From a virus (lineage: Duplodnaviria; Heunggongvirae; Uroviricota; Caudoviricetes), in IMG/VR virus record IMGVR_UViG_2541047755_000009: 40,602 bases of DNA; one strand, given 5' to 3'. Made by a program: the position numbers and the translations under genes. The stretch's first letter is position 1, and every line of letters begins with the position of its first letter. Of the stretch, positions 1 to 26,555 are shown piece after piece. The notes beneath the pieces were generated by a model. The model was not told the origin of the DNA and searched no databases. It saw only the letters and a list, made by a program, of their open reading frames with translations.

Positions 1-516
1 ATGAAATTTAAAAAATGTCTTCTGCCTGTGGCAACGTTAGCGTCATTCACTCTGGCAGGATGCCAGTCAAATGCTGATGATCATGCCGCCGATGTTTATC
101 AAACCGATCAACTGAATACCAAACAAGAAACTAAAACCGTTAATATTATTTCCATTCTTCCCGCAAAAGTTGCCGTAGACAACTCCCAAAATAAACGAAA
201 CGCACAAGCCTTCGGCGCGCTTATTGGTGCAGTCGCTGGCGGTGTTATTGGCCACAACGTCGGGTCTGGCAGCAATTCCGGAACGACGGCAGGTGCAGTT
301 GGCGGCGGAGCTGTTGGCGCGGCAGCGGGTTCTATGGTGAATGATAAAACCTTAGTGGAAGGTGTTTCTTTAACGTATAAGGAAGGCACCAAAGTGTATA
401 CCTCCACCCAGGTGGGTAAAGAGTGCCAGTTTACGACAGGTTTAGCCGTTGTTATTACCACGACGTATAACGAAACGCGTATTCAGCCAAATACGAAATG
501 TCCTGAAAAGAGCTAA
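1..516 (+). CDS. lipoprotein with glycine-zipper (SlyB-like) region; probable chromosomal flank
   Basis: ATG at position 1; signal peptide ending in lipobox LAGC; Gly/Ala-rich zipper stretch GALIGAVAGGVIGH; next gene follows 16 nt later. Confidence 0.7.
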   Translation: MKFKKCLLPVATLASFTLAGCQSNADDHAADVYQTDQLNTKQETKTVNIISILPAKVAVDNSQNKRNAQAFGALIGAVAGGVIGHNVGSGSNSGTTAGAVGGGAVGAAAGSMVNDKTLVEGVSLTYKEGTKVYTSTQVGKECQFTTGLAVVITTTYNETRIQPNTKCPEKS

Positions 517-531
517 TGATCAGGAGGAGTC

Positions 532-1071
532 ATGAAGAAAGTTTTTCTTTGCGCCATCTTAGCCTCCTTAAGCTATCCGGCTATCGCCTCATCATTGCAG
601 GATCAACTCTCTGCTGTCGCAGAAGCGGAACAGCAAGGTAAAAATGAAGAGCAAAGGCAGCATGACGAATGGATCGCGGAGCGCAACAGGGAAATCCAGC
701 AAGAGAAGCAACGTCGCGCAAACGCCCAGGCCGCCGCTAACAAAAGAGCGGCAACGGCAGCGGCAAATAAGAAAGCTCGTCAGGATAAACTGGATGCCGA
801 AGCCACTGCGGACAAAAAACGCGATCAAAGTTATGAAGATGAGCTACGCAGCTTAGAGATTCAGAAACAAAAACTGGCGCTGGCGAAAGAAGAAGCCCGC
901 GTTAAGCGCGAAAACGAATTTATCGATCAGGAACTGAAGCACAAAGCTGCGCAAACCGATGTGGTGCAATCTGAAGCTGACGCAAACAGGAATATGACTG
1001 AGGGCGGTCGCGATCTGATGAAAAGCGTGGGCAAAGCAGAAGAGAACAAATCGGACAGCTGGTTTAACTAA
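532..1071 (+). CDS. secreted Lys/Glu/Gln/Ala-rich coiled-coil protein (hypothetical)
   Basis: AGGAGG-type RBS upstream; N-terminal signal peptide; intrinsic terminator downstream. Confidence 0.6.
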   Translation: MKKVFLCAILASLSYPAIASSLQDQLSAVAEAEQQGKNEEQRQHDEWIAERNREIQQEKQRRANAQAAANKRAATAAANKKARQDKLDAEATADKKRDQSYEDELRSLEIQKQKLALAKEEARVKRENEFIDQELKHKAAQTDVVQSEADANRNMTEGGRDLMKSVGKAEENKSDSWFN

Positions 1072-1118
1072 GCGATGTCAGTAACTTCAAGCCTATGATT
1101 CGTGAGTATAATAAATAT

Positions 1119-1142
1119 CCTCCGGCATAGCCGGAGGTTTTT
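1119..1142 (+). terminator. rho-independent terminator of the 532-1071 gene
   Basis: stem CCTCCGGC / GCCGGAGG with loop ATA followed by TTTTT. Confidence 0.7.
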
Positions 1143-1149
1143 CAAATGC

Positions 1150-1862
1150 GCCTATAAGGCTCTCTTACCAGCCGCGCCCTAACAGGCGCACACGATCTGA
1201 CATTTGCATCCAACTTCGTTACTTACGGCCCGTAAACGGGCTGCCCGGATAGGGAATCGATAACTGCTCTCCCATTTTATCCTCTTCAAGCTGGTGCTTT
1301 ATGTAATCCTGTATCTTCGCCGTGTTCTTACCCACTGTATCGACGTAGTACCCTCTGCACCAGAACTCCCTGTTCCTGTATTTGAATTTCAAATCACCAA
1401 ACTGCTCGTAAAGCATCAGACTGCTTTTCCCTTTCAGATATCCCATAAACCCGGATACGCTCATTTTAGGCGGGATCTCCACAAGCATATGGATATGATC
1501 TGCACAGCATTCAGCTTCCAGAATCCGTACGCTTTTCCACTCACACAGCTTTCTCAAAATACTGCCTATTGCTCTACGCTTCTCTCTGTAGAACACCTGT
1601 CTTCGGTATTTTGGCGCAAAAACTATGTGATATTTACAGTTCCATCGGGTGTGCGCTAAGCTCTTTTCGTTCCCCATTGGGACCCCCTTTTGATTTCTTG
1701 TTTGACACTTGCAGTTGCCAGACCGCAAGGTGTTTTAACAAATCAAAAGGGGTTTTAATAACTGGCTCAAAGCTGAAAGCTTTCCGGAACCCCCAGCCTA
1801 GCTGGGGGTTTTCTGTGCACAAAAAACCCTCTGTAGTAACAGAGGGTTTTGTTCATTCATAG
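1150..1862 (-). mobile_element. IS200 (IS200/IS605 family) insertion sequence; ends approximate
   Basis: tnpA with IS200 hallmark; terminator-like hairpin AAAACCCTCTG..CAGAGGGTTTT plus T-run near 1822-1850 on the tnpA strand; RBS-sequestering inverted repeat CCCCTTTTGATTT / AAATCAAAAGGGGG just 5' of the tnpA ATG; about 0.7 kb overall. Confidence 0.7.
1219..1677 (-). CDS. tnpA: IS200 transposase TnpA (Y1/HUH transposase)
   Basis: MGNEKSLAHTRWNCKYHIVFAPKYRR... is the IS200 TnpA N-terminus; HxH motif (HIHML); about 152 aa from the internal ATG at 1677. Confidence 0.9.
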   Translation of the reverse strand: MGNEKSLAHTRWNCKYHIVFAPKYRRQVFYREKRRAIGSILRKLCEWKSVRILEAECCADHIHMLVEIPPKMSVSGFMGYLKGKSSLMLYEQFGDLKFKYRNREFWCRGYYVDTVGKNTAKIQDYIKHQLEEDKMGEQLSIPYPGSPFTGRK

Positions 1863-1999
1863 TGCAGGGTCAAATCATTCCCACTCAATTATTTACGATA
1901 ACCATAACCAATTGAGTGATAACATTTTTCCAAATCTCAATTTTTATCGTACCGTTTTATATACCGTCACCGGAAATCAGTACCATGAAAAATGCCATG

Positions 2000-2482
2000 C
2001 TATCTGGTCAGGGTGTCGTACTGTTTTTCACAGACTCTTCCGGCTTCGGCTGCCCGGTCAGCATACTCTGCCAGTTGTCTGTTTCTCTCGAGAGATTTAC
2101 TGAGCACGTCGGCAAGCAAAACTCCGGTGTCTGCGGCTGACGTCCCAGCGCCGACAATGGCGTTATACTGCCTGAGCTGCTCACGGATGGCAACGAGCTG
2201 TTGCTGCAACCGGCCAGCGCGAGCGGCAGCATCAAGAGCATCATTGCGCGCCTGGTCGATCCTCTGCTGCGCTTCACGTTCATTGATCGCTTTCTCCTGT
2301 TCGTAGTGCTGACGAATTCTCTCATCTTCGGTTTTGCGGTCTTCTTTCGCCTGCGCATACCCGGCGTCGTACTGACGACTGCCGTGTACACTCCAGGCAA
2401 CAACTCCTGATATGACCAGAACAGCAAGCACCGCCATGATAATCAACTGTTTCCGGTATGCTTTTACGAATGCCCAGATCAT
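2000..2482 (-). CDS. Rz: i-spanin Rz
   Basis: N-terminal TM helix then Gln/Ala/Arg-rich coiled coil; ATG overlaps the endolysin stop (ATGA); last gene of lysis cassette. Confidence 0.8.
2008..2244 (-). CDS. Rz1: o-spanin Rz1 lipoprotein embedded in the +1 frame of Rz
   Basis: alternate frame inside Rz encodes [13 protein letters not shown] (lipobox LAGC) followed by a Pro/Ser-rich peptide; start codon chosen by eye. Confidence 0.65.
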   Translation of the reverse strand: MMLLMLPLALAGCSNSSLPSVSSSGSITPLSALGRQPQTPEFCLPTCSVNLSRETDNWQSMLTGQPKPEESVKNSTTP

Positions 2483-3108
2483 ACCGCCAGCACCTTACTG
2501 GCATTGATGTATCGCGCGCGCCGGTCGTCGATGCCGTTCCGGCCACCATTGATAATCAGAGTTACACGTGCAATATCGCCGGTATACTTCATGCATCCTT
2601 TGCTGGCAAAGAACCACGCCGCGCTACGAGCCGCGTATTCGTCCTGCGCCAGCAGTTCAGGACTCTCCAGCAGGTCAACCTTAAGACCGTTTCCACAGTC
2701 ACGATAGTTATTCAAACCGGTAACCTGGATAAGCCCGCGCCCACGGTAGTTCCAGCCATCACCAGGGGCATTGTTCCCCATGCGTTTGCTGTACACCAGA
2801 TTGGCAATCGCTCTCTGGCGCTCAAGTGGCAATGGTGGTTCGCCTGCACGTCGCCCCAATGCGTTGGCCTGTCCCTGAGTGAGACGCCCAGCCCGAACAA
2901 AGTTAGCCAGTCCGCTGACGCTGTAGTTGAAATTCTCCTGCAACCGGGTGAAGCCTCCAGACTCATGCCCGACCTGAGCAATAAACATAGCCTGATCTTC
3001 TGGTTTGCTGATACCAAACTCTTTCATCGCAGAAGTTATATGCGAGAACCAGCGTGCGGCCAGTGCCTCGCTGATACCAGCAGCTCGCTGGAATTGTTTA
3101 ATCTCCAT
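2479..3108 (-). CDS. endolysin, glycoside hydrolase family 19 (chitinase-like)
   Basis: GH19 signatures [10 protein letters not shown] and [15 protein letters not shown]; GAGG RBS 8 nt upstream; no N-terminal TM segment so not a SAR endolysin. Confidence 0.85.
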
Positions 3109-3406
3109 GTTTAGACCTCGATACTTTGAAAATTTGAACGACGTTACCGCGCGTTTTAATAACCGCAGCTAGCATGACAGCGTTGATAATGACCTCAGAT
3201 AAATCCACAGCCATTGGCGTACGTAACCAGATTGCATAGGCGACACGAACAGGAATACTGGCCGCAGCAACAATCAGGAAATAAGCAAGCCATCCTCCCC
3301 ACCTTCGGTGTTGAGAGCCGTTACGCCGGAATGTGACAACGCGAATTGCTATGCCAGTGCAAATAACTGCATTGGTGATAAGCAAAAAAAACTCATGCGT
3401 TACCAT
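3098..3406 (-). CDS. lysis-cassette membrane protein (holin or antiholin candidate)
   Basis: 102 aa with about 3 hydrophobic helices; GGGGAGAAAAG RBS; overlaps both the upstream gene end and the endolysin start. Confidence 0.6.
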
Positions 3407-3797
3407 CGTCTTTTCTCCCCGGAATTAACTCGCGTGGATTATCGGAACGGTGATAGAGCCATATACCAATACGCACAGCGACAATTGCTGACACGAATGC
3501 GCCTGCAGAGAAAACAATCCCTTTTTCAAAAGAGTCCTGCGTGATGGTAGGGATCAGGCTGGCTATGCCGATAAGAATTGATGCTGCTGGTTTGTAAAAG
3601 AGAAGGCCGCAAAGAAAGCTGAGCATCGACAGGAGCACCCGGCGACGGATGGGGTACTCTACTGCAGAGGTAACAAAAATTACCGCTCCAGCCAAAGCAC
3701 CCAAAGCAACCTCAGGAGGAACTCCTGCTATCACCGCCGCCAGAGAACTCATGCTAAGCCACTGATTTAAAGTTTCACTGGTTAGTTGAGCTGACAT
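3393..3797 (-). CDS. multi-TM membrane protein (holin candidate)
   Basis: about 134 aa from ATG at 3797 with GGTGGA RBS (track ORF begins at GTG 3806); about 4 predicted TM helices; immediately upstream of the lysis genes. Confidence 0.55.
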   Translation of the reverse strand: MSAQLTSETLNQWLSMSSLAAVIAGVPPEVALGALAGAVIFVTSAVEYPIRRRVLLSMLSFLCGLLFYKPAASILIGIASLIPTITQDSFEKGIVFSAGAFVSAIVAVRIGIWLYHRSDNPRELIPGRKDDGNA

Positions 3798-3999
3798 GTT
3801 TTCCACCGTTTATATGCATAACAACCTCCTGAACAGTAAAGCATTACGCATAATAAACCATTTATGGTTTTTTGTTACTTTAACATCGTCAATTCCCTGT
3901 TTTTCATGCCGAGAATAAAGCTCACCTTTTACATGACTCTGAAGAAACAAACAGTGAAGAGCAGGTTGAATACCGCACCATTTAATGGCGCGGTAGCAG

Positions 4000-4296
4000 T
4001 CAAATAGAGAAATAAACACAAAAACAAAAAACAACAGGAACAGCAAAATCCAACAGACTTCCCACATCCCACACGCGTGGATCAAAACCTCCCCACCACG
4101 GCATGTTGATACGTTTCCCTTTCCCAAACTTTTCTATCCAGCGATATTCTGCCTGGGTGTGTTCACGCGCAATGAAGAACGTACAACCGGCTATCGCACC
4201 GTAAGCCCAGTTTCCGGTAAAAATACCAACCAGTACCTGAGCCACAAAAGCGCAAAGCGAGTGAAGAAATGGAGTGACATCAATGCTCTTAATCAT
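4000..4296 (-). CDS. small membrane protein translationally coupled to the tailspike (function unknown)
   Basis: ATG overlaps the tailspike stop (tcATGA); GGGGAAG RBS; 98 aa with 2-3 hydrophobic helices; AT-rich. Confidence 0.55.
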   Translation of the reverse strand: MIKSIDVTPFLHSLCAFVAQVLVGIFTGNWAYGAIAGCTFFIAREHTQAEYRWIEKFGKGKRINMPWWGGFDPRVWDVGSLLDFAVPVVFCFCVYFSI

Positions 4297-6482
4297 GAAA
4301 CTTCCCCATTGGTTGAAAATATGGCTCCTCCAACGCCAAGTGTATTTCGTGTTGTGCTCAACCTCAGAGGGCTGGAGTCAGAATTAGAATATCCTGTAGC
4401 AGAAATAAAAGATCCTCCACTAATAGTCAACTGCGGAACATCGGCTATATCTGAATAAGTTCTGTCAGCAACAGTATTATTTATAGCCACATATGATCCA
4501 AAAAAACTTCTTATTGTTTGGTTTTTAACTTTACTTCCTTCAATGGTTATCCTACTACCACAGTCGGCAATAAATCCTGAATCTGCATCCAGCGTTGCAT
4601 TCATAAAAGAAGCTTCAGATCTCTCTACATCAATCCATCTAATATCTTTTGTGGGATTTGCACCAAATACATGACAAATATTAGAGTTAAACCTTACACC
4701 ATCTTGGAGGTGCATTAATTTTTTTATATCTGTACCCCATAGCCTTGGAAAATTAACAGATGCTCCTGCATGGCAATCAAATCCCAGCTCAGCCCCTGAG
4801 ATATCTACAGCCTTTCCTGAAATAACAGCACCAGTGTCTGCATTAACGGCTGTTCCACAATTGCGCATATCATTACCAGCAACATCAACGCAACCCGCAC
4901 CATCAATACGCACACCAAGTGCACATCCATAAAAACCTTTTTCAATATTTGGTTCAAGGACTTTACCACTTGTTTCTGCATCACTTTCTTCAACGTCATG
5001 TCGTCTTGCATCAACATATGCTGTATGAATGCAGGTTAATCCACGATATGAGCAATGTATAGTTTTATGGTCGCGTATATTAACATTTGAACCATCTCTT
5101 ACATTCCATCCTATATAACAATAGCTTGCACTTGACCCCTGAAAATCTGCTTTAACATTATAAATACAATTAACTGACGCAACCGTACTCTCTGTGCACC
5201 GTTCAAACTTGCTTACAGGCATTGATGCCTTGACATTATTTACCAGTTGCAGGGAAGAGTATCTGCTATAAGAAAAATCACATACGTAATACCCTTCTGG
5301 CATATATGCAGCAACACTTTCCTCATCAGGAGCACATCCGGTATGATATGCACTAATTTTTGCACCAAAACTACCATGAATTCCAACGTAGAACTTTCGA
5401 GCACCTGAATACGGATAGAAATTAAGTTCAGCTTTTTGAGTTACAATAAATGCACAAACATCGCTATCATCTCTATTTTCTTCGATCTGAATAGCAAATA
5501 CAGGACTTTTTGCTGCATCGCAAATGTAAAATAAATACTTGTATTCGTAATACGTTCTAACGATTTTAGTAAACAAACGAGTGTCAGAGAAAACCACTGA
5601 GTCTTCTGATGTTATTTTAATCCAAGACAAATCAACACCTGAACTGAATTCAATTTGATAGTTGATAATATGCCCGGTCTTAATTCTTATTTCGCAGAAA
5701 GCATTACCACCATCCCACATAGGTCTCATTGACTGGGCTGCAATGATTGCATCTTTGAGTGTAGGGTAATCACCCCATTCGCCAACAGTAATAACAAAAG
5801 TATAATATGAGTTAAAAACAGCGGCATTTTTGCCTTTGGATATCAACTCCTTAATCATAAAAATATTATCTTCGTAATCACAAGGAGAAATTATATCCCT
5901 CATTTTGCTTTGAAATGTTCGTTGTCTTGCCCCGCTTCCTGACGGTATAAACCAACCAAAACCACCAACAACCCCGGCGATTGCAGCATCGACATAATTA
6001 CGCATTGAGCGATTATTTACAGCGTCCTGCTCAAATGATGGATCTGCAAGGTTAGAAATTTTGTTTTGCTTTGCATCGTAATATTTTGCAAGCAAAGATG
6101 GTTTCATCAATGCACGTCTGAACCACCCAAAACATCGCTGGATCAGCATCGTCAGGTAGTCAAATGCATCTTCATGAACTTCGGGGAAAAATTTTCCCTG
6201 ATTGCGAAGATCAGTCTCCTGCACCACATCAAGCACACGCTCTATCGTAATTCGCCAGCCAGCAGCAAGCGGCGACGGGAGAACCACTTCACCGCCACTA
6301 TAAGTGCCCGCTCCAGTTACCTTATAACCGGTATCCAGAACCAATTCTGTTACGTTCCCGTTCAGGTCAGACACCTGAACAACCAGGTCGGTTTTTTTGA
6401 AAATACGGAAGGTATACGGAAATGATGTCGTAACGCCGTTACCGGTGTATTCGTTGTGGTCAACTTCGGTTGAGACCGTCAT
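4293..6482 (-). CDS. tailspike with epsilon15-gp20-like N-terminal particle-binding domain
   Basis: N-terminus MTVSTEVDHNEYTGNGVTTSFPYTFRIFKK...HEDAFDYLTMLIQ matches the conserved epsilon15-type tailspike head-binding module as I recall it; long Gly/Asn/Ser/Thr-rich C-terminal part typical of beta-helix receptor-binding domains. Confidence 0.8.
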   Translation of the reverse strand: MTVSTEVDHNEYTGNGVTTSFPYTFRIFKKTDLVVQVSDLNGNVTELVLDTGYKVTGAGTYSGGEVVLPSPLAAGWRITIERVLDVVQETDLRNQGKFFPEVHEDAFDYLTMLIQRCFGWFRRALMKPSLLAKYYDAKQNKISNLADPSFEQDAVNNRSMRNYVDAAIAGVVGGFGWFIPSGSGARQRTFQSKMRDIISPCDYEDNIFMIKELISKGKNAAVFNSYYTFVITVGEWGDYPTLKDAIIAAQSMRPMWDGGNAFCEIRIKTGHIINYQIEFSSGVDLSWIKITSEDSVVFSDTRLFTKIVRTYYEYKYLFYICDAAKSPVFAIQIEENRDDSDVCAFIVTQKAELNFYPYSGARKFYVGIHGSFGAKISAYHTGCAPDEESVAAYMPEGYYVCDFSYSRYSSLQLVNNVKASMPVSKFERCTESTVASVNCIYNVKADFQGSSASYCYIGWNVRDGSNVNIRDHKTIHCSYRGLTCIHTAYVDARRHDVEESDAETSGKVLEPNIEKGFYGCALGVRIDGAGCVDVAGNDMRNCGTAVNADTGAVISGKAVDISGAELGFDCHAGASVNFPRLWGTDIKKLMHLQDGVRFNSNICHVFGANPTKDIRWIDVERSEASFMNATLDADSGFIADCGSRITIEGSKVKNQTIRSFFGSYVAINNTVADRTYSDIADVPQLTISGGSFISATGYSNSDSSPLRLSTTRNTLGVGGAIFSTNGEVS

Positions 6483-6585
6483 GTTAAATCTCCAGATAGT
6501 CGCAGCACCCGTTGCGCCGCATATCTGGTTATTCTATTACCTGTAAAACCACATATGGATAGAAAGACTGTAAATACGAATAGAT

Positions 6586-6602
6586 ATTACCTTTCAGGTA
6601 AT
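6586..6602. promoter_or_regulatory. operator-like palindrome ATTACC-TTTCA-GGTAAT (site A)
   Basis: perfect 6+5+6 inverted repeat abutting a TTGCAA -35-like hexamer upstream of the 6678 gene. Confidence 0.55.
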
Positions 6603-6640
6603 TTGCAAAACGTGCTGGATAGCAAACAAATTATTTGATA

Positions 6641-6656
6641 CTGTATAAATATACAG
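6641..6656. promoter_or_regulatory. LexA (SOS) box
   Basis: taCTGTataaatatACAGtt, i.e. CTGT-N8-ACAG with AT-rich spacer, near-perfect to the enterobacterial LexA consensus; about 20 nt upstream of the GGAGAAG RBS / ATG at 6678. Confidence 0.8.
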
Positions 6657-6677
6657 TTATTGCATGGAGAAGATAAG

Positions 6678-6935
6678 ATGCAGCAGTATCACTATCCACT
6701 GGAAGACGGATTTACCGAAAGGATTCACACGCCGGGAGGCGTCAGGTCACTGGTGGAGGGATCGCACTTGATGAAATTACTCCGGGATCTCGATAAGGAT
6801 GGATTTAATGTCGATGGCCCACTTGCCGAACTGACTGCACTGATTAACTACGTCACCAGCTCACAGATGTCTATGCGGGATCTGCAAACACATCTCGACT
6901 ATTGTGCCGAACAATTACGAAAACAAACCAGATAA
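6678..6935 (+). CDS. small antirepressor-like protein (stand-alone copy of the Bro-N protein C-terminal domain)
   Basis: 85 aa; RBS GGAGAAG; about 75 aa align with the C-terminus of the 7249-7935 product (LMKLLRDLDKDGFNVDGPLAELT...RDLQTH versus LLMNLLNQLQEDGHDVSGAAAELT...RDIQTH). Confidence 0.65.
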   Translation: MQQYHYPLEDGFTERIHTPGGVRSLVEGSHLMKLLRDLDKDGFNVDGPLAELTALINYVTSSQMSMRDLQTHLDYCAEQLRKQTR

Positions 6936-6965
6936 GGTTTGCAATTGCCAAGTGGAGTGCTTATA

Positions 6966-6982
6966 TTTACCTTTGCGGTAAA
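6966..6982. promoter_or_regulatory. operator-like palindrome TTTACC-TTTGC-GGTAAA (site I) inside a GGAGTGC / GCACTCC hairpin
   Basis: same half-site family; sits in the 310-nt untranslated gap between the two antirepressor-like genes. Confidence 0.45.
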
Positions 6983-7248
6983 TTTACATCGCACTCCTCT
7001 TGTGCCATAGTAATCGGGCACTGGCAAAATCCAGTGCCGGGATTGGCGTCCCGAGTTACTACAGAGGCACATATGCCGCATAAGCGGTTTTTTTTATGTG
7101 TAAAGCGCACCTATTCTATGGTGGGCTGTGTGGGGGCACCGAAAGGTGCGCCGGGTCCTTTGTAGCCGGTTACGCCAACCCTGCACAGTTCACCACCAAC
7201 CGATTGGCGTCGGTAGTGGTGATTAACCTAACTACAAAGGTGATCACT

Positions 7249-8024: not shown

Positions 8025-8049
8025 CCATGTGTTTACATGAGGAGGAGAT

Positions 8050-8259
8050 ATGGGATTTTGGTTCGCTCGTACAAAAACGAGGGATAATGCACCCAGCCCT
8101 CAGGCAAAAAATGCAGAAGTTCCGGCGTCAGCGCAGGTTAACAAGCGTGGTGGTGTGTATATCTCATCACAGCAAATTTCTGAGCTTCCTGAGGTTAAGG
8201 AGATGCGTCGTCTCGCTGCTGCAATCGTTAAACAGGATCTTGCCACTGTAAGGAAATAG
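8050..8259 (+). CDS. hypothetical small hydrophilic protein, first gene of accessory cassette
   Basis: strong RBS GAGGAGG then ATG; 69 aa; stop TAG overlaps the GTG start of the next gene (taGTG). Confidence 0.6.
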   Translation: MGFWFARTKTRDNAPSPQAKNAEVPASAQVNKRGGVYISSQQISELPEVKEMRRLAAAIVKQDLATVRK

Positions 8260-9125
8260 TGTTGTTAGCTCTTCTAATTATCCCCATTCTGGTTAGTGGT
8301 TATATTATGATAACCGCTAACCAGTATCATTATTTCCGTTTATACCGACATGAAGGCCAGCTTCTTTATATGAAAGTAGCTGCATTAGGTACATATTGCC
8401 TTGTTGCTTCGGTAATAATTGCCGCATTTATAAAATATAAATATCCTGATTTTCACCTAGTTCACGATATGGTGGAAACTTTTAATGTAACGTCAAAACC
8501 AGAAACAGATAGAATTTACATGTGGCTGCTTCTTCTCTCAGCCACATCCATTTGCTTCTCTTTGTGTTATGTGTCTGTTGTGTGGGTGAAAGATTTTCTT
8601 CTTGGTTGTTTTTATAAACGTGATATTTATGAGCAAAAAACAGAGGCAATGAAGGCCAGAGTACTGCGAAAAACTTACTCGCAAGGTTCTTTAGACTTAC
8701 TATTGCTTGATGCTATTGAATCGGATCCTAAACGACCAATGCTGATTACTTTATCATCAAACAAAGTGTATGTTGGAATAATAAATGGTTCTGGTGAACC
8801 AACGGAAAATCAGGGTCCGCATCAGCACATATCTTTTGTTCCTTTAATGTCAGGATACAGGAACAAAGACAACTTATCTGTCACATTCACTAATGCTTAT
8901 CCAGGAGAAATACAGGTCAAGCGGACTGCAGCAATAAGAGGAATTAGCAGAAAGAAAGTGCCAGGACTTGAGATCATGGTGTCTATTGACGAAATAAGTT
9001 ATATATCATGGTTTGATTTTGAAGTATATAAAGCAACAAATAACAAAGTAGAATCCAGGGGGCACGTTATTCGTGTTACCAAAAATGGAAGAAATATATA
9101 TCAAAGAAATAGCAAAAAAGAATAG
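8259..9125 (+). CDS. membrane-anchored protein, 3 N-terminal TM helices plus about 180-aa soluble domain (unknown function; exclusion/defense candidate)
   Basis: 288 aa; GTG start coupled to upstream stop; visibly AT-rich codon usage unlike the neighbouring phage genes; intrinsic terminator directly downstream. Confidence 0.65.
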   Translation: MLLALLIIPILVSGYIMITANQYHYFRLYRHEGQLLYMKVAALGTYCLVASVIIAAFIKYKYPDFHLVHDMVETFNVTSKPETDRIYMWLLLLSATSICFSLCYVSVVWVKDFLLGCFYKRDIYEQKTEAMKARVLRKTYSQGSLDLLLLDAIESDPKRPMLITLSSNKVYVGIINGSGEPTENQGPHQHISFVPLMSGYRNKDNLSVTFTNAYPGEIQVKRTAAIRGISRKKVPGLEIMVSIDEISYISWFDFEVYKATNNKVESRGHVIRVTKNGRNIYQRNSKKE

Positions 9126-23984: not shown

Positions 23985-25660
23985 TGTGATTGCCCACCCT
24001 GACCACTAACTGCATTCGCCATAGCTGACAAAACACTCGGATCCGAAGTTTTAGCTTCGCTTAGCGTCTTGGCGCCCTGTGCCGCCGCCATTCCCATCGC
24101 CATCATTTGTTGCTGCTGTTGCTGCTGTGCCCGTTGCTGGCGAGCCTGCTCAACCTGTTCCTGCGGAACAATGACGGTTGGAGACACTCCGGACATATCA
24201 GCGAATGCATCGATCGCCTGATCAACGTTGAGTTTGTCGAGAGCTTCTGGTTTCGCTTGCGCAAGTTGACCAATGAAGTTGACCGTAGACGCCAGACTGG
24301 ACAGGCCGATAGACTTCTGCGCCTGAGCCATGACGGAAATGTATTCGACCTTCAGGGGCATACCTTCCATCGCGTCAGGCGGTGGCGGCAGCATGTTTTT
24401 ACGCACCATCATCGAGAAAGCGCGGTCAATGAGAGGATTAAGACATTCGTCGTTCAGACGCTCCAGAACCGGCCCCAACATCAGAAGTTTTTCTTCTTTC
24501 ATTTCGATCACCGCTTCAACAGGCATCGAGCGGGTATTGATGTTCTGCAACATCATGAACAGATCGACAAAGTAGGCGCTGTTAATGATTTGACGAGTGT
24601 CCTGAATGTCTGCCACCAAATCTGCTGTACTGGGGTTAACCAGATAAGCAGGCCTGAAACCATCCTGACCAGTAATCTGATCGATATACGTGATGTCGCC
24701 AGGAAGAAGGGAGGCACGCTGATTCTTGAGGGAAGTCGGAGCAACCATCGGCGGATTGGTGGCTTTATCAATCAACTGCGACTTGCGCTTCTGGAGAAGC
24801 TGCAATGCCTTAACAGGTCCAAGCGCCAGCATACCCGGGCATGATGATCCATAAACATCTTCGCCGTTAACTTCCCAGCGCGGAGCCATAATTGGAAACT
24901 CATCGAATCCGGACTCACGCAACAACTTGTCGTTATCGCCACCAACCTCGTAATAAACCGATTTGAATGGCTTGTTCTTGCTATCCAGCTTCGATGTATC
25001 GCGGTCAATGTTCGGGTAAACCGAATGCATCACTTCAATCCACTTCTCGTAGGTTCCGCTTTCCCACATGCTTTTTACGGATTCGCTGACGTTATTTAGC
25101 CCGAACTCCTGAACAAGCTGACGAACAGTCATAGAGAACTTGCGAAAACAGGTGTCCACACTGCCACGAGGTGAGTTAGCCAGGTAGTAACTGCCTATCG
25201 GGAATGGCATTGTGCGAATGATGTCCTCATCATCCTCCAGTACCGCCATTGCACCGGTGCTGTATGTGCCGAGGCTTCCGTATAACTGCGGCAGCGACTG
25301 ATAGAGATTCGACTTATTGAACATATCGTTCATGCGGTTCTGCACCGCCTCAAGCCACAACTTAACAGGGCCATAATCCATCATTTCAGGATCTGGCGTA
25401 GCCAGGCGAAACCACGGACGCGCGGGGCTTGTGATGCCTGACATCATGCCGCTGGCGAGAGTGCGCGCCGCCATAGTCCCGGTCGAATCAATAATGCGTG
25501 TATTGCGTCGATCGTTACGGTTGACCTCAGAAGTCAGAAAGCGGGAACCACGCGGGTTGATGTAATCACTCAACTCGCGCCAGTGCGGCTCGAACGACTG
25601 ACGCTCGCTTTCAAGTTGTGCGAACTGTTTGTTCAATCGCTCTTTAGTTGTTTCCGCCAT
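23981..25660 (-). CDS. portal protein
   Basis: 559 aa directly downstream of the terminase block; GGAG RBS; Gln/Ala-rich C-terminal tail. Confidence 0.75.
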   Translation of the reverse strand: MAETTKERLNKQFAQLESERQSFEPHWRELSDYINPRGSRFLTSEVNRNDRRNTRIIDSTGTMAARTLASGMMSGITSPARPWFRLATPDPEMMDYGPVKLWLEAVQNRMNDMFNKSNLYQSLPQLYGSLGTYSTGAMAVLEDDEDIIRTMPFPIGSYYLANSPRGSVDTCFRKFSMTVRQLVQEFGLNNVSESVKSMWESGTYEKWIEVMHSVYPNIDRDTSKLDSKNKPFKSVYYEVGGDNDKLLRESGFDEFPIMAPRWEVNGEDVYGSSCPGMLALGPVKALQLLQKRKSQLIDKATNPPMVAPTSLKNQRASLLPGDITYIDQITGQDGFRPAYLVNPSTADLVADIQDTRQIINSAYFVDLFMMLQNINTRSMPVEAVIEMKEEKLLMLGPVLERLNDECLNPLIDRAFSMMVRKNMLPPPPDAMEGMPLKVEYISVMAQAQKSIGLSSLASTVNFIGQLAQAKPEALDKLNVDQAIDAFADMSGVSPTVIVPQEQVEQARQQRAQQQQQQQMMAMGMAAAQGAKTLSEAKTSDPSVLSAMANAVSGQGGQSQ

Positions 25661-25674
25661 TTCAATGACTCCGG

Positions 25675-25881
25675 TTACTGACCAAGCAGCGTTTTACCGC
25701 TGGTATTAGCGGTTGATGTGTCGCCCTGAGAACCGGTAAGCAGCGTAGAACTACGACCAGCAGCAGCGCGACGGCGACGTGTTTCTTCGTCGCGGGCATC
25801 AACAACGGCGGCATCCTGCTCCTGTGGTGCTGCCTGAACTTCTGGTGTTGCAGGCACTGATGGTGAGCTACCCATGCACAT
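25675..25881 (-). CDS. small low-complexity protein upstream of portal (hypothetical)
   Basis: 68 aa; GGAG about 10 nt upstream of ATG. Confidence 0.35.
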   Translation of the reverse strand: MCMGSSPSVPATPEVQAAPQEQDAAVVDARDEETRRRRAAAGRSSTLLTGSQGDTSTANTSGKTLLGQ

Positions 25882-25970
25882 ATCAATGACTCCGTACGCA
25901 ATTAAATTATTACCAATTTAACCACATATGATTTATTTATCGTAGACAGTTGACATTTAACGCGCGAATT

Positions 25971-25987
25971 ATTACCTTTAAGGTAAC
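25971..25987. promoter_or_regulatory. operator-like palindrome ATTACC-TTTAA-GGTAAC (site C) next to a TTGACA hexamer
   Basis: same family as the immunity-region operators; lies between the late operon and the tRNA leader. Confidence 0.5.
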
Positions 25988-26315
25988 CAAAGAGTTCATT
26001 CCGGTTACTAACCTGACTGGCTTGTCGTTAAATTGAACAGGTGGAGTGAGCTTTTATTTTGAGCAGTACGGCGTATGGCACATGCGACGATAGCGGTCTG
26101 GATACGTTTAAGGGGCACCCTCCCTTGCTCGGGCAAACGAACCAGGTAGCCGGAATGTGCAAGTCGAGCGGTTTTATTCCGCGCACGGGGATTCACCATC
26201 CCGGCGATTCGGTGTGACGCCTCGGAAGAGACGAGGGTACAACGATGAGAGCATTGGATATTAGCGGGCTGTTCCACCCTACCTGATATCGAGCCAAACC
26301 AGTGCTCTCAGCGTT

Positions 26316-26392
26316 GTGGCATTAGCTCAGTTGGACAGAGCAACCGCCTTCTAAGCGGTTGGTCGCAGGTTCGAATCCTGCATGCCACGCCA
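26316..26392 (+). tRNA. tRNA-Arg, anticodon UCU (reads AGA)
   Basis: 77 nt cloverleaf: acceptor GTGGCAT / ATGCCAC, D-stem GCTC / GAGC with A20, anticodon stem ACCGC / GCGGT, loop CTTCTAA, T-arm GCAGG-TTCGAAT-CCTGC, G73, encoded CCA. Confidence 0.9.
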
Positions 26393-26436
26393 GAATCACG
26401 CCTAAGGACCGTGATGCCAGAAGTTCCAGGGGATTG

Positions 26437-26477
26437 GCGGTGATGGTTTCCCTTGAAGGACTATCACCGCCCTTTTT
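26437..26477 (+). terminator. rho-independent terminator downstream of the tRNA
   Basis: GGCGGTGAT...ATCACCGCC stem followed by CTTTTT. Confidence 0.65.
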
Positions 26478-26555
26478 ACAGCAGGACGCCATTGCGATGA
26501 CTTCATGCTGTAAACCAGTACAGCCACGGAAGGCATAACTCATTGCTTCCAGTTC

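Follow-up and report, generated by a model that had tools for sequence, protein, structure and literature searches.

Within the window, which is the whole 40,602-nt stretch of DNA analysed, the open reading frame detailed in Table 1 is the tailspike gene of an epsilon15/phiV10-like (Uetakevirus) Escherichia coli prophage, and its coordinates are exactly those of the first-pass annotation. The PHROG profile phrog_5662, 'tail fiber protein', covers the product at full length (729/729). RefSeq labels the protein with this body as 'hypothetical' or 'phage tail protein'. The gene is flanked on one side by the BRO-N/antirepressor region and on the other by the lysis cassette, an order also found in epsilon15, phiV10 and phiv142-3. 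Backbone identity (97–98% to HEMP4, phiv142-3 and phiV10) and conserved gene order both place the genome around the tailspike among the Uetakevirus genomes, and the spike would be made by a temperate epsilon15/phiV10-like podovirus inserted beside yfgI in E. coli. Scanning positions 3700–7200 for promoters and terminators returned 9 promoter-like sites against 9.3 expected from shuffled sequences, with no enrichment.

Table 1. Tailspike gene, its segments and the adjoining small ORF (positions in the window)
Feature	Position	Strand	Description and basis
Tailspike gene	4293..6482	minus	ATG start, 729 aa plus stop; ORF list, phrog_5662
Small membrane-protein ORF	4000..4296	minus	98 aa, overlaps tailspike stop (ATGA); phrog_1443, function unknown
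Anchor subdomain, aa 1–102	6177..6482	minus	Equivalent to D1 of Dpo31; phmmer against PDB; 70% identity to epsilon15 gp20
Anchor/neck, aa 103–184	5931..6176	minus	D2-like, end of Uetakevirus-type segment A; DNA identity profile
Junction motif, about aa 185–203	5874..5930	minus	ARQRTFQSKMRDIISPCDY, 5′ module boundary; alignment of tailspikes
Segment B, aa 204–287	5622..5873	minus	Helical cap and first beta-helix rungs, DNA 'orphan'; DNA profile, DSSP
Segment C, aa 288–729	4293..5621	minus	Main beta-helix, presumed receptor-binding (possibly depolymerising); DNA and protein identity

The 98-aa ORF that follows the tailspike gene is 89% identical to JEP4_21 and 87% identical to Orf5 of phiv142-3, and the DNA of both phages is 92–100% identical to that of the prophage across approximately 4290–4060. 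It occurs behind tail-fibre genes in 63 phage records, most of these lambdoid, and gave no Pfam, NCBIfam or PADLOC hit. We considered the possibility that it is a specificity-matched conversion gene which moves with the body, and rejected it because the ORF is equally conserved beside the unrelated spike body of phiv142-3 and, behind side-tail-fibre genes, in some 50 lambdoid phages. We prefer to interpret it as flanking homology that these phages share at the cassette's 3′ edge. Unlike epsilon15 and phiV10, the prophage does not carry a serotype-conversion gene, whether O-acetylase, polymerase or gtr, after the tailspike gene.

A three-part mosaic gene

The N-terminus of the spike is homologous to that of epsilon15 gp20 (aa 1–165, 70.3% identity, E = 5e-62, tblastn), with 67% identity between the anchor and the phiV10 tailspike. 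Residues 1–203 are 91–93% identical to the E. coli Uetakevirus tailspikes of ZX5, phiv142-3 and EC.W1-9, whose bodies are unrelated, and the PHROG profiles of numerous tailspike families align solely with the N-terminal part, aa 1 to about 166 or 206. A phmmer search against the PDB aligned aa 1–202 with residues 1–207 of Dpo31 (E = 2e-31), in which D1 comprises residues 1–102 (PMC13317679). The first-pass annotation had recognized gp20-like sequence in the first 120 or so residues; the homology is borne out, and these tblastn and PHROG matches indicate that the anchor is longer, extending to about aa 184 with the junction motif continuing to aa 203. In segment A the DNA is 90–100% identical to phiv142-3, ZX5 and Phi05_1387B until about position 5950, beyond which identity falls. 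The motif at this boundary, R(T/V)xxxKxx(D/E)xI(S/T)PxD, aligns in the tailspikes of phiv142-3 and ZX5, which have unrelated bodies, and recurs in JEP4, 92CQ and VEc3 at the start of the shared body. Residues 1–184 would constitute a conserved anchor that fixes the spike, presumably a trimer, to the tail, with the short motif joining this anchor to an exchangeable right-handed beta-helix body.

Beyond aa 165 we detected no similarity to epsilon15 gp20 by tblastn. Residues 185–729 are instead 89% identical to tail proteins of JEP4, HZ41 and 92CQ and 48% identical to that of the Vectrevirus VEc3, in agreement with the earlier statement that the remainder of the protein is a different sequence. 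The body itself is composite. Segment B (aa ~204–287), which DSSP resolves into helices followed by the first strands, has DNA relatives only in HEMP4 and E. coli prophages, and at the protein level it is about 50% identical to JEP4/P0002. From approximately 5620 to the stop codon, segment C is 97–100% identical in DNA to JEP4, a P22-like phage, and to 92CQ, a 130-kb phage, while its protein is 99–100% identical to the homologue P0002; most invariant residues of the body family fall here. GC3 drops along the gene from 0.44 to 0.32 (aa 179–304) and 0.22 (aa 305–729), in a window with a GC content of 0.49. Since breakpoints in the DNA identity profile are sharp, the second lying inside the body at aa ~288–305, and are accompanied by this compositional shift, the arrangement is not due to chance. 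The tailspike gene is a three-part mosaic, so that the fusion of an N-terminal module to a body proposed at first holds, with three parts in place of two. Full-length collinear identity to a single tailspike had been named as the observation that would speak against mosaicism. Such identity is found in HEMP4 (99.6%, an unannotated record) and in 11 E. coli prophages, but since all of these are the same mosaic allele, mosaicism stands.

The same body is found behind at least five N-terminal adaptors (epsilon15-type, the P22 head-binding domain PF09008, PF18668, PF12571 and the T7-type PF03906) in four phage lineages, which substantiates the suggestion that a receptor-binding body has been swapped horizontally behind an epsilon15-type module. 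The same receptor module thus travels among podoviruses from two families, a Vectrevirus and a large phage that carries baseplate genes. What makes such transfer possible is conserved sequence at the junctions, one breakpoint being within the beta-helix. At least two recombination events would have built the body, with a first crossover at the junction motif and a more recent one within the body near aa 288–305; the 3′ crossover would lie in the conserved small ORF downstream. Events of this kind would explain the near identity of aa 288–729 with their counterparts in the tail proteins of JEP4 and 92CQ.

Capsule loci and O-antigens of the carriers

Among 5,426 complete genome records of E. coli, exactly 16 contain the body. 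Fifteen of these 16 carriers bear one of two related group-2 kps loci built around a TagF-like polymerase, which together occur in only 49 of the 5,426 genomes. The type I (118UI-type) kps region 2 is present in 40 genomes, including 10 lysogen records, and the related type II locus in 9 genomes, 5 of which are lysogens; 118UI and MS 198-1 are type I strains, PD23 and FORC_082 type II strains. The two loci encode homologous core enzymes, with identities of 47% and 63%. Fisher's test of the body against the two loci gave p ~3e-31; the association is correlative, and shared ancestry inflates it because several type I lysogens probably represent one CC69 clade. A third TagF-like capsule type, the Stealth/TagF type III, which serves as a negative control, included no lysogens among 31 genomes. 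Both Uetakevirus and P22-like phage types are present in both capsule types. The sole exception among the lysogens is EC332, which has another kps region 2 whose first genes encode a GT2 and a nucleotide-sugar dehydrogenase.

Among epsilon15-like and P22-like phages, the default is a classical O-antigen tailspike of the epsilon15 gp20 and P22 gp9 class, which cleaves one O-polysaccharide and restricts the phage to one O-serogroup. The position of the gene, as in epsilon15 and phiV10, agrees with such a spike, as does a predicted beta-helix fold in common with the O-antigen endoglycosidases of CBA120 (TSP2), HK620 and P22. The hosts argue otherwise. Tailspike genes that are 99–100% identical occur in lysogens whose O-antigen gene clusters are of types O11, O15, O25 and O83, four types in the four lysogens examined, and we accordingly discarded lysogen O-type as a guide to the receptor. 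Hosts of different O types share a 100% identical segment C, and the O11 wzx-wzy segment, present in 66 genomes, coincides with only one lysogen among the 60 matches listed. Together with the lack of a serotype-conversion gene, these observations largely contradict specificity for an O-antigen, which we consider very improbable. In ECCNB12-2 the prophage is at another chromosomal position, and the O-cluster was not found at the offset used. Given that 15 of 16 carriers fall within 49 of the 5,426 genomes, that their O-types are mixed and that the control group has no lysogens, the most likely receptor is the group-2 capsule of the TagF-like kps loci and not O-antigen.

It could also be argued that this association simply reflects how the host population is structured, and that the body binds a different, widely distributed receptor, for example LPS core, enterobacterial common antigen, colanic acid or a protein. 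Many type I lysogens do look clonal, with identical wcaK, wzxC and hisH accessions in MS 198-1 and 118UI, and EC332 combines the body with a different capsule type. A published host-range study moreover credits JEP4 with lysis of 32 of 67 ESBL E. coli, among them 28 of 38 phylogroup A strains (PMC8425383), a range wider than a rare capsule receptor would suggest, which counts against recognition of the capsule. A common receptor, however, would predict carriers across the whole species, and clonality is hard to reconcile with an association that recurs in at least eight separate contexts: these include isolates from pig, chicken, chicken-meat, seawater and human, genomes that range from 4.7 to 5.5 Mb, two phage types, and differing integration sites. 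The contrast between 5 lysogens in 9 type II genomes and 0 in 31 genomes of the other TagF-like type points the same way, and we regard population structure as a distinctly unlikely explanation. The report on JEP4 calls it a myovirus (PMC8425383), a label at odds with its 39-kb P22-like genome. Our literature search found no receptor or serotype data for HEMP4, JEP4, VEc3, ZX5 or the lysogen strain names.

We infer that the two kps loci are those of K52 and a simpler relative, because K52 is found mainly in CC69, a lineage with 11 O types (PMC13171598), because it is among the loci that show rearrangement of K-specific genes with kpsT/kpsM (PMC13171606), as also seen in 118UI, and because one of the 40 type I genomes is named O15:H18 ST69. 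In a 2026 study K52 was ranked as the E. coli capsule of highest estimated invasive potential, mainly in uropathogenic CC69 (PMC13171598). No phage enzyme for E. coli K52 was found described in the literature searched. The backbone of the K52 polymer is galactose-phosphate, to which a fructose side chain and O-acyl groups are attached.

Predicted fold, possible activity and relation to known spikes

Structure prediction gave a confident right-handed beta-helix for the body, which the first-pass annotation had called beta-helix-like. Among curated families, the body matched no Pfam model (only a sub-threshold T7 tail-fibre match) and no NCBIfam entry, and PF13229 is reached only by some of its distant relatives. 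The family is small: an exhaustive search of 1.8 billion proteins returned 16 representatives at E<1e-30, below which came generic beta-helix proteins and no functional label. The protein cluster comprises 190 sequences. A phmmer search of PDB sequences found nothing for the body, the Dpo31 anchor being the only match. The solved structure closest to the model is the receptor-binding protein gp15 of Staphylococcus phage Andhra (PDB 8EGR), for which that search gave no sequence homology. In structural alignment, Andhra gp15 and the phi29 pre-neck appendage gp12 (3GQ7) are 14–16% identical to the body; both belong to phages of Gram-positive hosts and have another mode of N-terminal attachment, and the likeness is one of fold.

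Of the two activities proposed earlier, an esterase is not borne out, as Pfam detected no SGNH/GDSL hydrolase domain in the tailspike. The homologues P0015 and P0018 bear such a domain as an extra C-terminal domain. A glycanase activity is suggested by the modelled fold. The body might alternatively bind capsule as a lectin-like beta-helix adhesin with no enzyme activity, leaving penetration to other parts of the virion, and the lack of demonstrated enzymatic activity in Andhra gp15 does count against an enzyme here. On the other hand, the charged residues that are invariant in the family cluster in the central helix (D284, D294, E335, R337, R362, K363, D402, R462, D463, R470, H486, R493, D538 and R540), a pattern typical of an active-site groove, and most capsule-specific podovirus spikes are depolymerases. 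A purely adhesive body thus appears unlikely. The body would recognize the group-2 capsule from kps loci that encode a TagF-like polymerase and a galactosyltransferase-related protein, and would probably depolymerise it, allowing the phage to reach the outer membrane whatever the O-antigen. As a whole, we think it reasonably probable that this is an anchored mosaic spike with a swapped body which recognizes the capsule of the TagF loci, K52 and its relative, and probably depolymerises it.

The modular exchange of tailspikes is textbook knowledge, and a further mosaic contributes little by itself; mosaicism is ordinary and the predicted capsule specificity is new. Carriage of a protein that has neither a Pfam nor an NCBIfam family appears to follow, independently of O-antigen, two related and rare group-2 capsule loci. 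A spike that recognizes or degrades K52 could serve capsule typing, the engineering of phage host range and anti-virulence work. A more specific proposal, tentative and on balance doubtful, would make the body the first phage depolymerase against K52-type capsules, a member of an unannotated beta-helix family structurally closest to the teichoic-acid-binding appendages of Gram-positive picoviruses, and would have it cleave the phosphodiester-linked, teichoic-acid-like product of the TagF-like polymerase at or next to the phosphodiester bond. If true, one fold family would link recognition of wall teichoic acid in Gram-positive bacteria with that of capsule in Gram-negative bacteria, and a ready reagent would be at hand against the K type reported with the highest invasive potential.

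Among known capsule-degrading proteins, the K5 lyase KflA and the K1 endosialidases (K1F/K1-5) have no sequence relationship to this tailspike; their activities are experimentally proven, whereas the capsule-directed activity predicted here derives from host genomics only. Dpo31, from a marine Cobetia podovirus (PDB 28LX/8CK1), has a homologous D1-D2 anchor and a similar layout of anchor, trimeric neck and catalytic beta-helix, and its exopolysaccharide depolymerase activity has been demonstrated (PMC13317679), but its catalytic body has no detectable similarity to the one described here, and host and substrate differ. The spikes of epsilon15 (gp20) and phiV10 share the anchor by homology and the gene position, while the bodies are unrelated past aa ~165; those phages are O-antigen specific and carry serotype-conversion genes after the spike, whereas a 98-aa membrane ORF follows it here and the hosts are of mixed O types. 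The closest counterparts of the body are JEP4_20, the HZ41 spike and the 92CQ tail fibre XVC02409, which are 99–100% identical to it over aa ~288–729 but only about 50% identical over aa 185–287. Their adaptors differ from the epsilon15-type one found here, being the P22 head-binding domain PF09008 in JEP4-type spikes, whose E. coli prophage counterparts are annotated 'phage head-binding domain-containing protein', and a short adaptor of its own in 92CQ. JEP4 shares the downstream small ORF with this prophage, and the E. coli lysogens of JEP4-type spikes belong to the same two capsule-locus groups.

Structure and origins of the tailspike gene

Sequence comparison identifies the window as an E. 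coli prophage of the epsilon15/phiV10 type (Uetakevirus); its positions 1873–25000 are 97–98% identical to phages HEMP4, phiv142-3 and phiV10. Positions 1–6935 match the prophage end and host flank of E. coli MS 198-1 (yfgH, yfgI, IS200C) at 99.86% identity, while parts of the remainder are just 93–97% identical or missing there, so the two prophages are close relatives and not the same prophage. In MS 198-1 the collinear stretch carries yfgH, yfgI and the IS200C transposase beside the prophage Rz-like gene. Read from this collinearity (24806–26482 of the MS 198-1 region L010), the window (~1–1900) begins in host DNA and the prophage end adjoins an IS200.

The first-pass annotation had placed the tailspike ORF at coordinates that match our ORF list exactly, and had proposed an epsilon15-type N-terminal module joined to a different body. 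The mosaic was borne out: residues 1–165 share 70% identity with epsilon15 gp20, and the body matches other phages. The likeness to epsilon15 thus stood, but the length suggested for the module, 120 or so residues, was too short, since the gp20 match extends to residue 165 and segment A to ~178. At the protein level, residues 1–203 are 91–93% identical to E. coli Uetakevirus tailspikes with unrelated bodies. Over residues 185–729 the protein shares 89% identity with the tail proteins of JEP4 (Lederbergvirus, P22-like), HZ41 and 92CQ, a phage of 130 kb; for Vectrevirus VEc3 the figure is 48%.

Features of the tailspike gene and its surroundings
Feature	Position (nt, strand)	Residues or product	Remarks
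Tailspike gene	4293..6482 (-)	729 aa	
Segment A	upstream of gene to about 5950	aa 1 to ~178	90–100% DNA identity to Uetakeviruses
Segment B	about 5950 to 5625	aa ~179–287	DNA relatives only HEMP4 and E. coli prophages
Segment C	about 5620 to 4293	aa ~288–729	97–100% DNA identity to JEP4 and 92CQ
Small ORF	4000–4296 (-)	98 aa, predicted membrane protein, phrog_1443	downstream of tailspike, overlaps its stop codon
Lysis genes	downstream of tailspike	two holin-family genes, GH19 endolysin	
BRO-N antirepressor region	upstream of tailspike		divergent transcription
Low-GC stretch	8025–9117		GC ~0.40; missing from the MS 198-1 prophage, which is similar elsewhere
ORF in low-GC stretch	8259–9125 (+)	288 aa	N-terminal hydrophobic region

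Segment borders were drawn from a 60-nt sliding DNA identity profile, with blastn alongside. The segment B protein is ~50% identical to that of JEP4, and GC3 falls from 0.44 (aa 1–178) through 0.32 (aa 179–304) to 0.22 (aa 305–729). The 5′ boundary coincides with the motif R(T/V)xxxKxx(D/E)xI(S/T)PxD (aa 186–203). Tailspikes whose bodies are unrelated can be aligned on it, and in JEP4, 92CQ and VEc3 it aligns where the common body starts. The internal breakpoint lies within a block of residues invariant in the family (D284-S286-W287...D294). At the 3′ end, DNA identity to 92CQ stops at the tailspike stop codon, identity to JEP4 extends as far as about 4060, within the small ORF, and identity to phiv142-3 restarts at about 4290. 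Because the small ORF is common to both parental types (JEP4, phiv142-3), it is the likely 3′ crossover site. Per-segment identities indicate shuffling of sub-blocks in other family members too, with homologues P0011 at 44%, 75% and 41% and P0023 at 56%, 46% and 22% over the three blocks. The mosaicism is genuine and its parts are clearly resolved, yet as a phenomenon it is ordinary.

Near-identical copies of the 98-aa protein, which has no Pfam, NCBIfam or PADLOC match, are encoded after the tail-fibre or tailspike gene in phages of the epsilon15 and P22 types and in about 50 lambdoid phages; in phage 21 its gene directly precedes the sitABCD moron, and more distant copies occur in Aeromonas phages. 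The 288-aa ORF likewise gave zero matches in Pfam, NCBIfam and PADLOC, and could be a variable cargo gene of the moron or defence type. JEP4 was described as a myovirus by electron microscopy and grouped with a 144-kb phage (PMC8425383), but the deposited genome (MT740315) is 39 kb long, encodes an integrase and a C2 repressor and is that of a P22-like Lederbergvirus; the host range given in the paper may thus not be that of this genome.

Hosts, capsule loci and the predicted receptor

The body is found in exactly 16 of the 5,426 complete E. coli genome records, in 11 as the full Uetakevirus-type gene and in 5 as a P22-type version; sensitive blastn found no divergent copies in E. coli genomes. 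The O-antigen is an unlikely receptor on this genomic evidence, as four Uetakevirus-type lysogens have four O types by RefSeq wzx/wzy annotation (O11, MS 198-1; O15, 118UI; O83, PD23; O25, GN02461), and the O11 wzx-wzy segment is found in 66 genomes, only 1 of the 60 listed being a lysogen. In three of the four examined lysogens the O-antigen cluster or its flank is disrupted: IS4 interrupts galF in MS 198-1 (L011 24779–27110), two ISAs1 copies sit between galF and wzx in 118UI (L014 11956–14189), and wzy carries a frameshift in GN02461 (L018 10903–11965).

In 118UI the kps locus lies at the end of the pheV island, its serotype-specific genes interleaved with kpsT and kpsM, and among their products are a TagF-like protein of 1,248 aa ('CDP-glycerol glycerophosphotransferase family') and one related to galactosyltransferases (GalT). 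Four K-specific genes lie between kpsS and kpsT and these two between kpsT and kpsM (L023 41462–50000, L024 881–7367), with an IS3 remnant after kpsS. This region-2 segment (type I) occurs in only 40 genomes, among them 7 Uetakevirus-type and 3 P22-type lysogen records. The TagF-like/GalT segment is found in the same 40 and, as a related gene at ~74% identity, in 9 more (type II), 5 of which are lysogens (PD23, GN02461, GPEC1186, FORC_082, PCP07083). Type II has a minimal gene set, consisting of the same core pair (proteins 47% and 63% identical to type I) and a small acyltransferase; in this simpler locus (L025) kpsM and kpsT remain adjacent. As a control, a TagF-like capsule locus with a Stealth protein (type III) had 0 lysogens among 31 genomes.

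Altogether, 15 of the 16 carrier records fall within the 49 of 5,426 genomes of types I and II (Fisher p about 3e-31, a value inflated by clonality), and even so the association reappears in at least 8 settings of host and phage. In EC332, the one exception, region 2 of the kps locus is different; segment C has the same sequence (100% identity) there and in hosts of types I and II. We infer that type I is K52, which is found mainly in CC69 (PMC13171598) and is listed among loci with kpsM/kpsT rearrangements in a paper that also mentions TagF-like capsule polymerases (PMC13171606); one of the 40 type I genomes bears the label O15:H18 ST69. Judged by the literature searched, the predicted capsule specificity is novel, and it can be tested directly.

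Fold of the body and comparison with known proteins

No Pfam or NCBIfam family covers the body, which RefSeq labels 'hypothetical protein' or 'phage tail protein'. Its family is small and comprises 24 clusters at 90% identity; of 1.8 billion proteins searched, 16 representatives reach E<1e-30. Five adaptor types precede the body. Homologues P0015 and P0018 have an extra C-terminal SGNH/GDSL esterase domain behind the beta-helix and the distant relative P0029 a glycerophosphodiester phosphodiesterase (GDPD) domain, further modular accretions on the body. AlphaFold2 with the 24-sequence alignment (pLDDT 93.9, pTM 0.89) gave a helical cap and, after it, short strands stacked over a long stretch, and Foldseek against PDB and BFVD agreed. 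The 'beta-helix-like' body of the first-pass annotation is thus modelled as a right-handed beta-helix of the tailspike kind, a fold that does not name an enzyme class.

Among solved tailspikes, residues 1–202 match Dpo31, from a marine podovirus (E 2e-31); its D1 spans residues 1–102, and its central beta-helix carries the depolymerase activity (PMC13317679). By homology, the anchor would fix a presumably trimeric spike to the tail; the beta-helix, judging from host association, would bind the capsule made by type I and II loci and, from its fold class and the invariant charged residues of the central helix, would probably depolymerise it, exposing the outer membrane for infection.

With a TagF-like polymerase the polymer should contain phosphodiesters, which makes a resemblance of the body to teichoic-acid-binding appendages suggestive, if unproven. 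The closest viral models are from Gram-positive picovirus-type phages; the receptor-binding protein of Staphylococcus phage Andhra binds wall teichoic acid, its activity being predicted only (PMC9710869). The same tailspike is already in databases without functional annotation (HEMP4, phrog_5662, 11 prophages). The HEMP4 record (OR424387) is flagged UNVERIFIED_ORG and lacks annotation; HEMP4 is the sole phage record with the full-length mosaic tailspike, at 99.6% identity.
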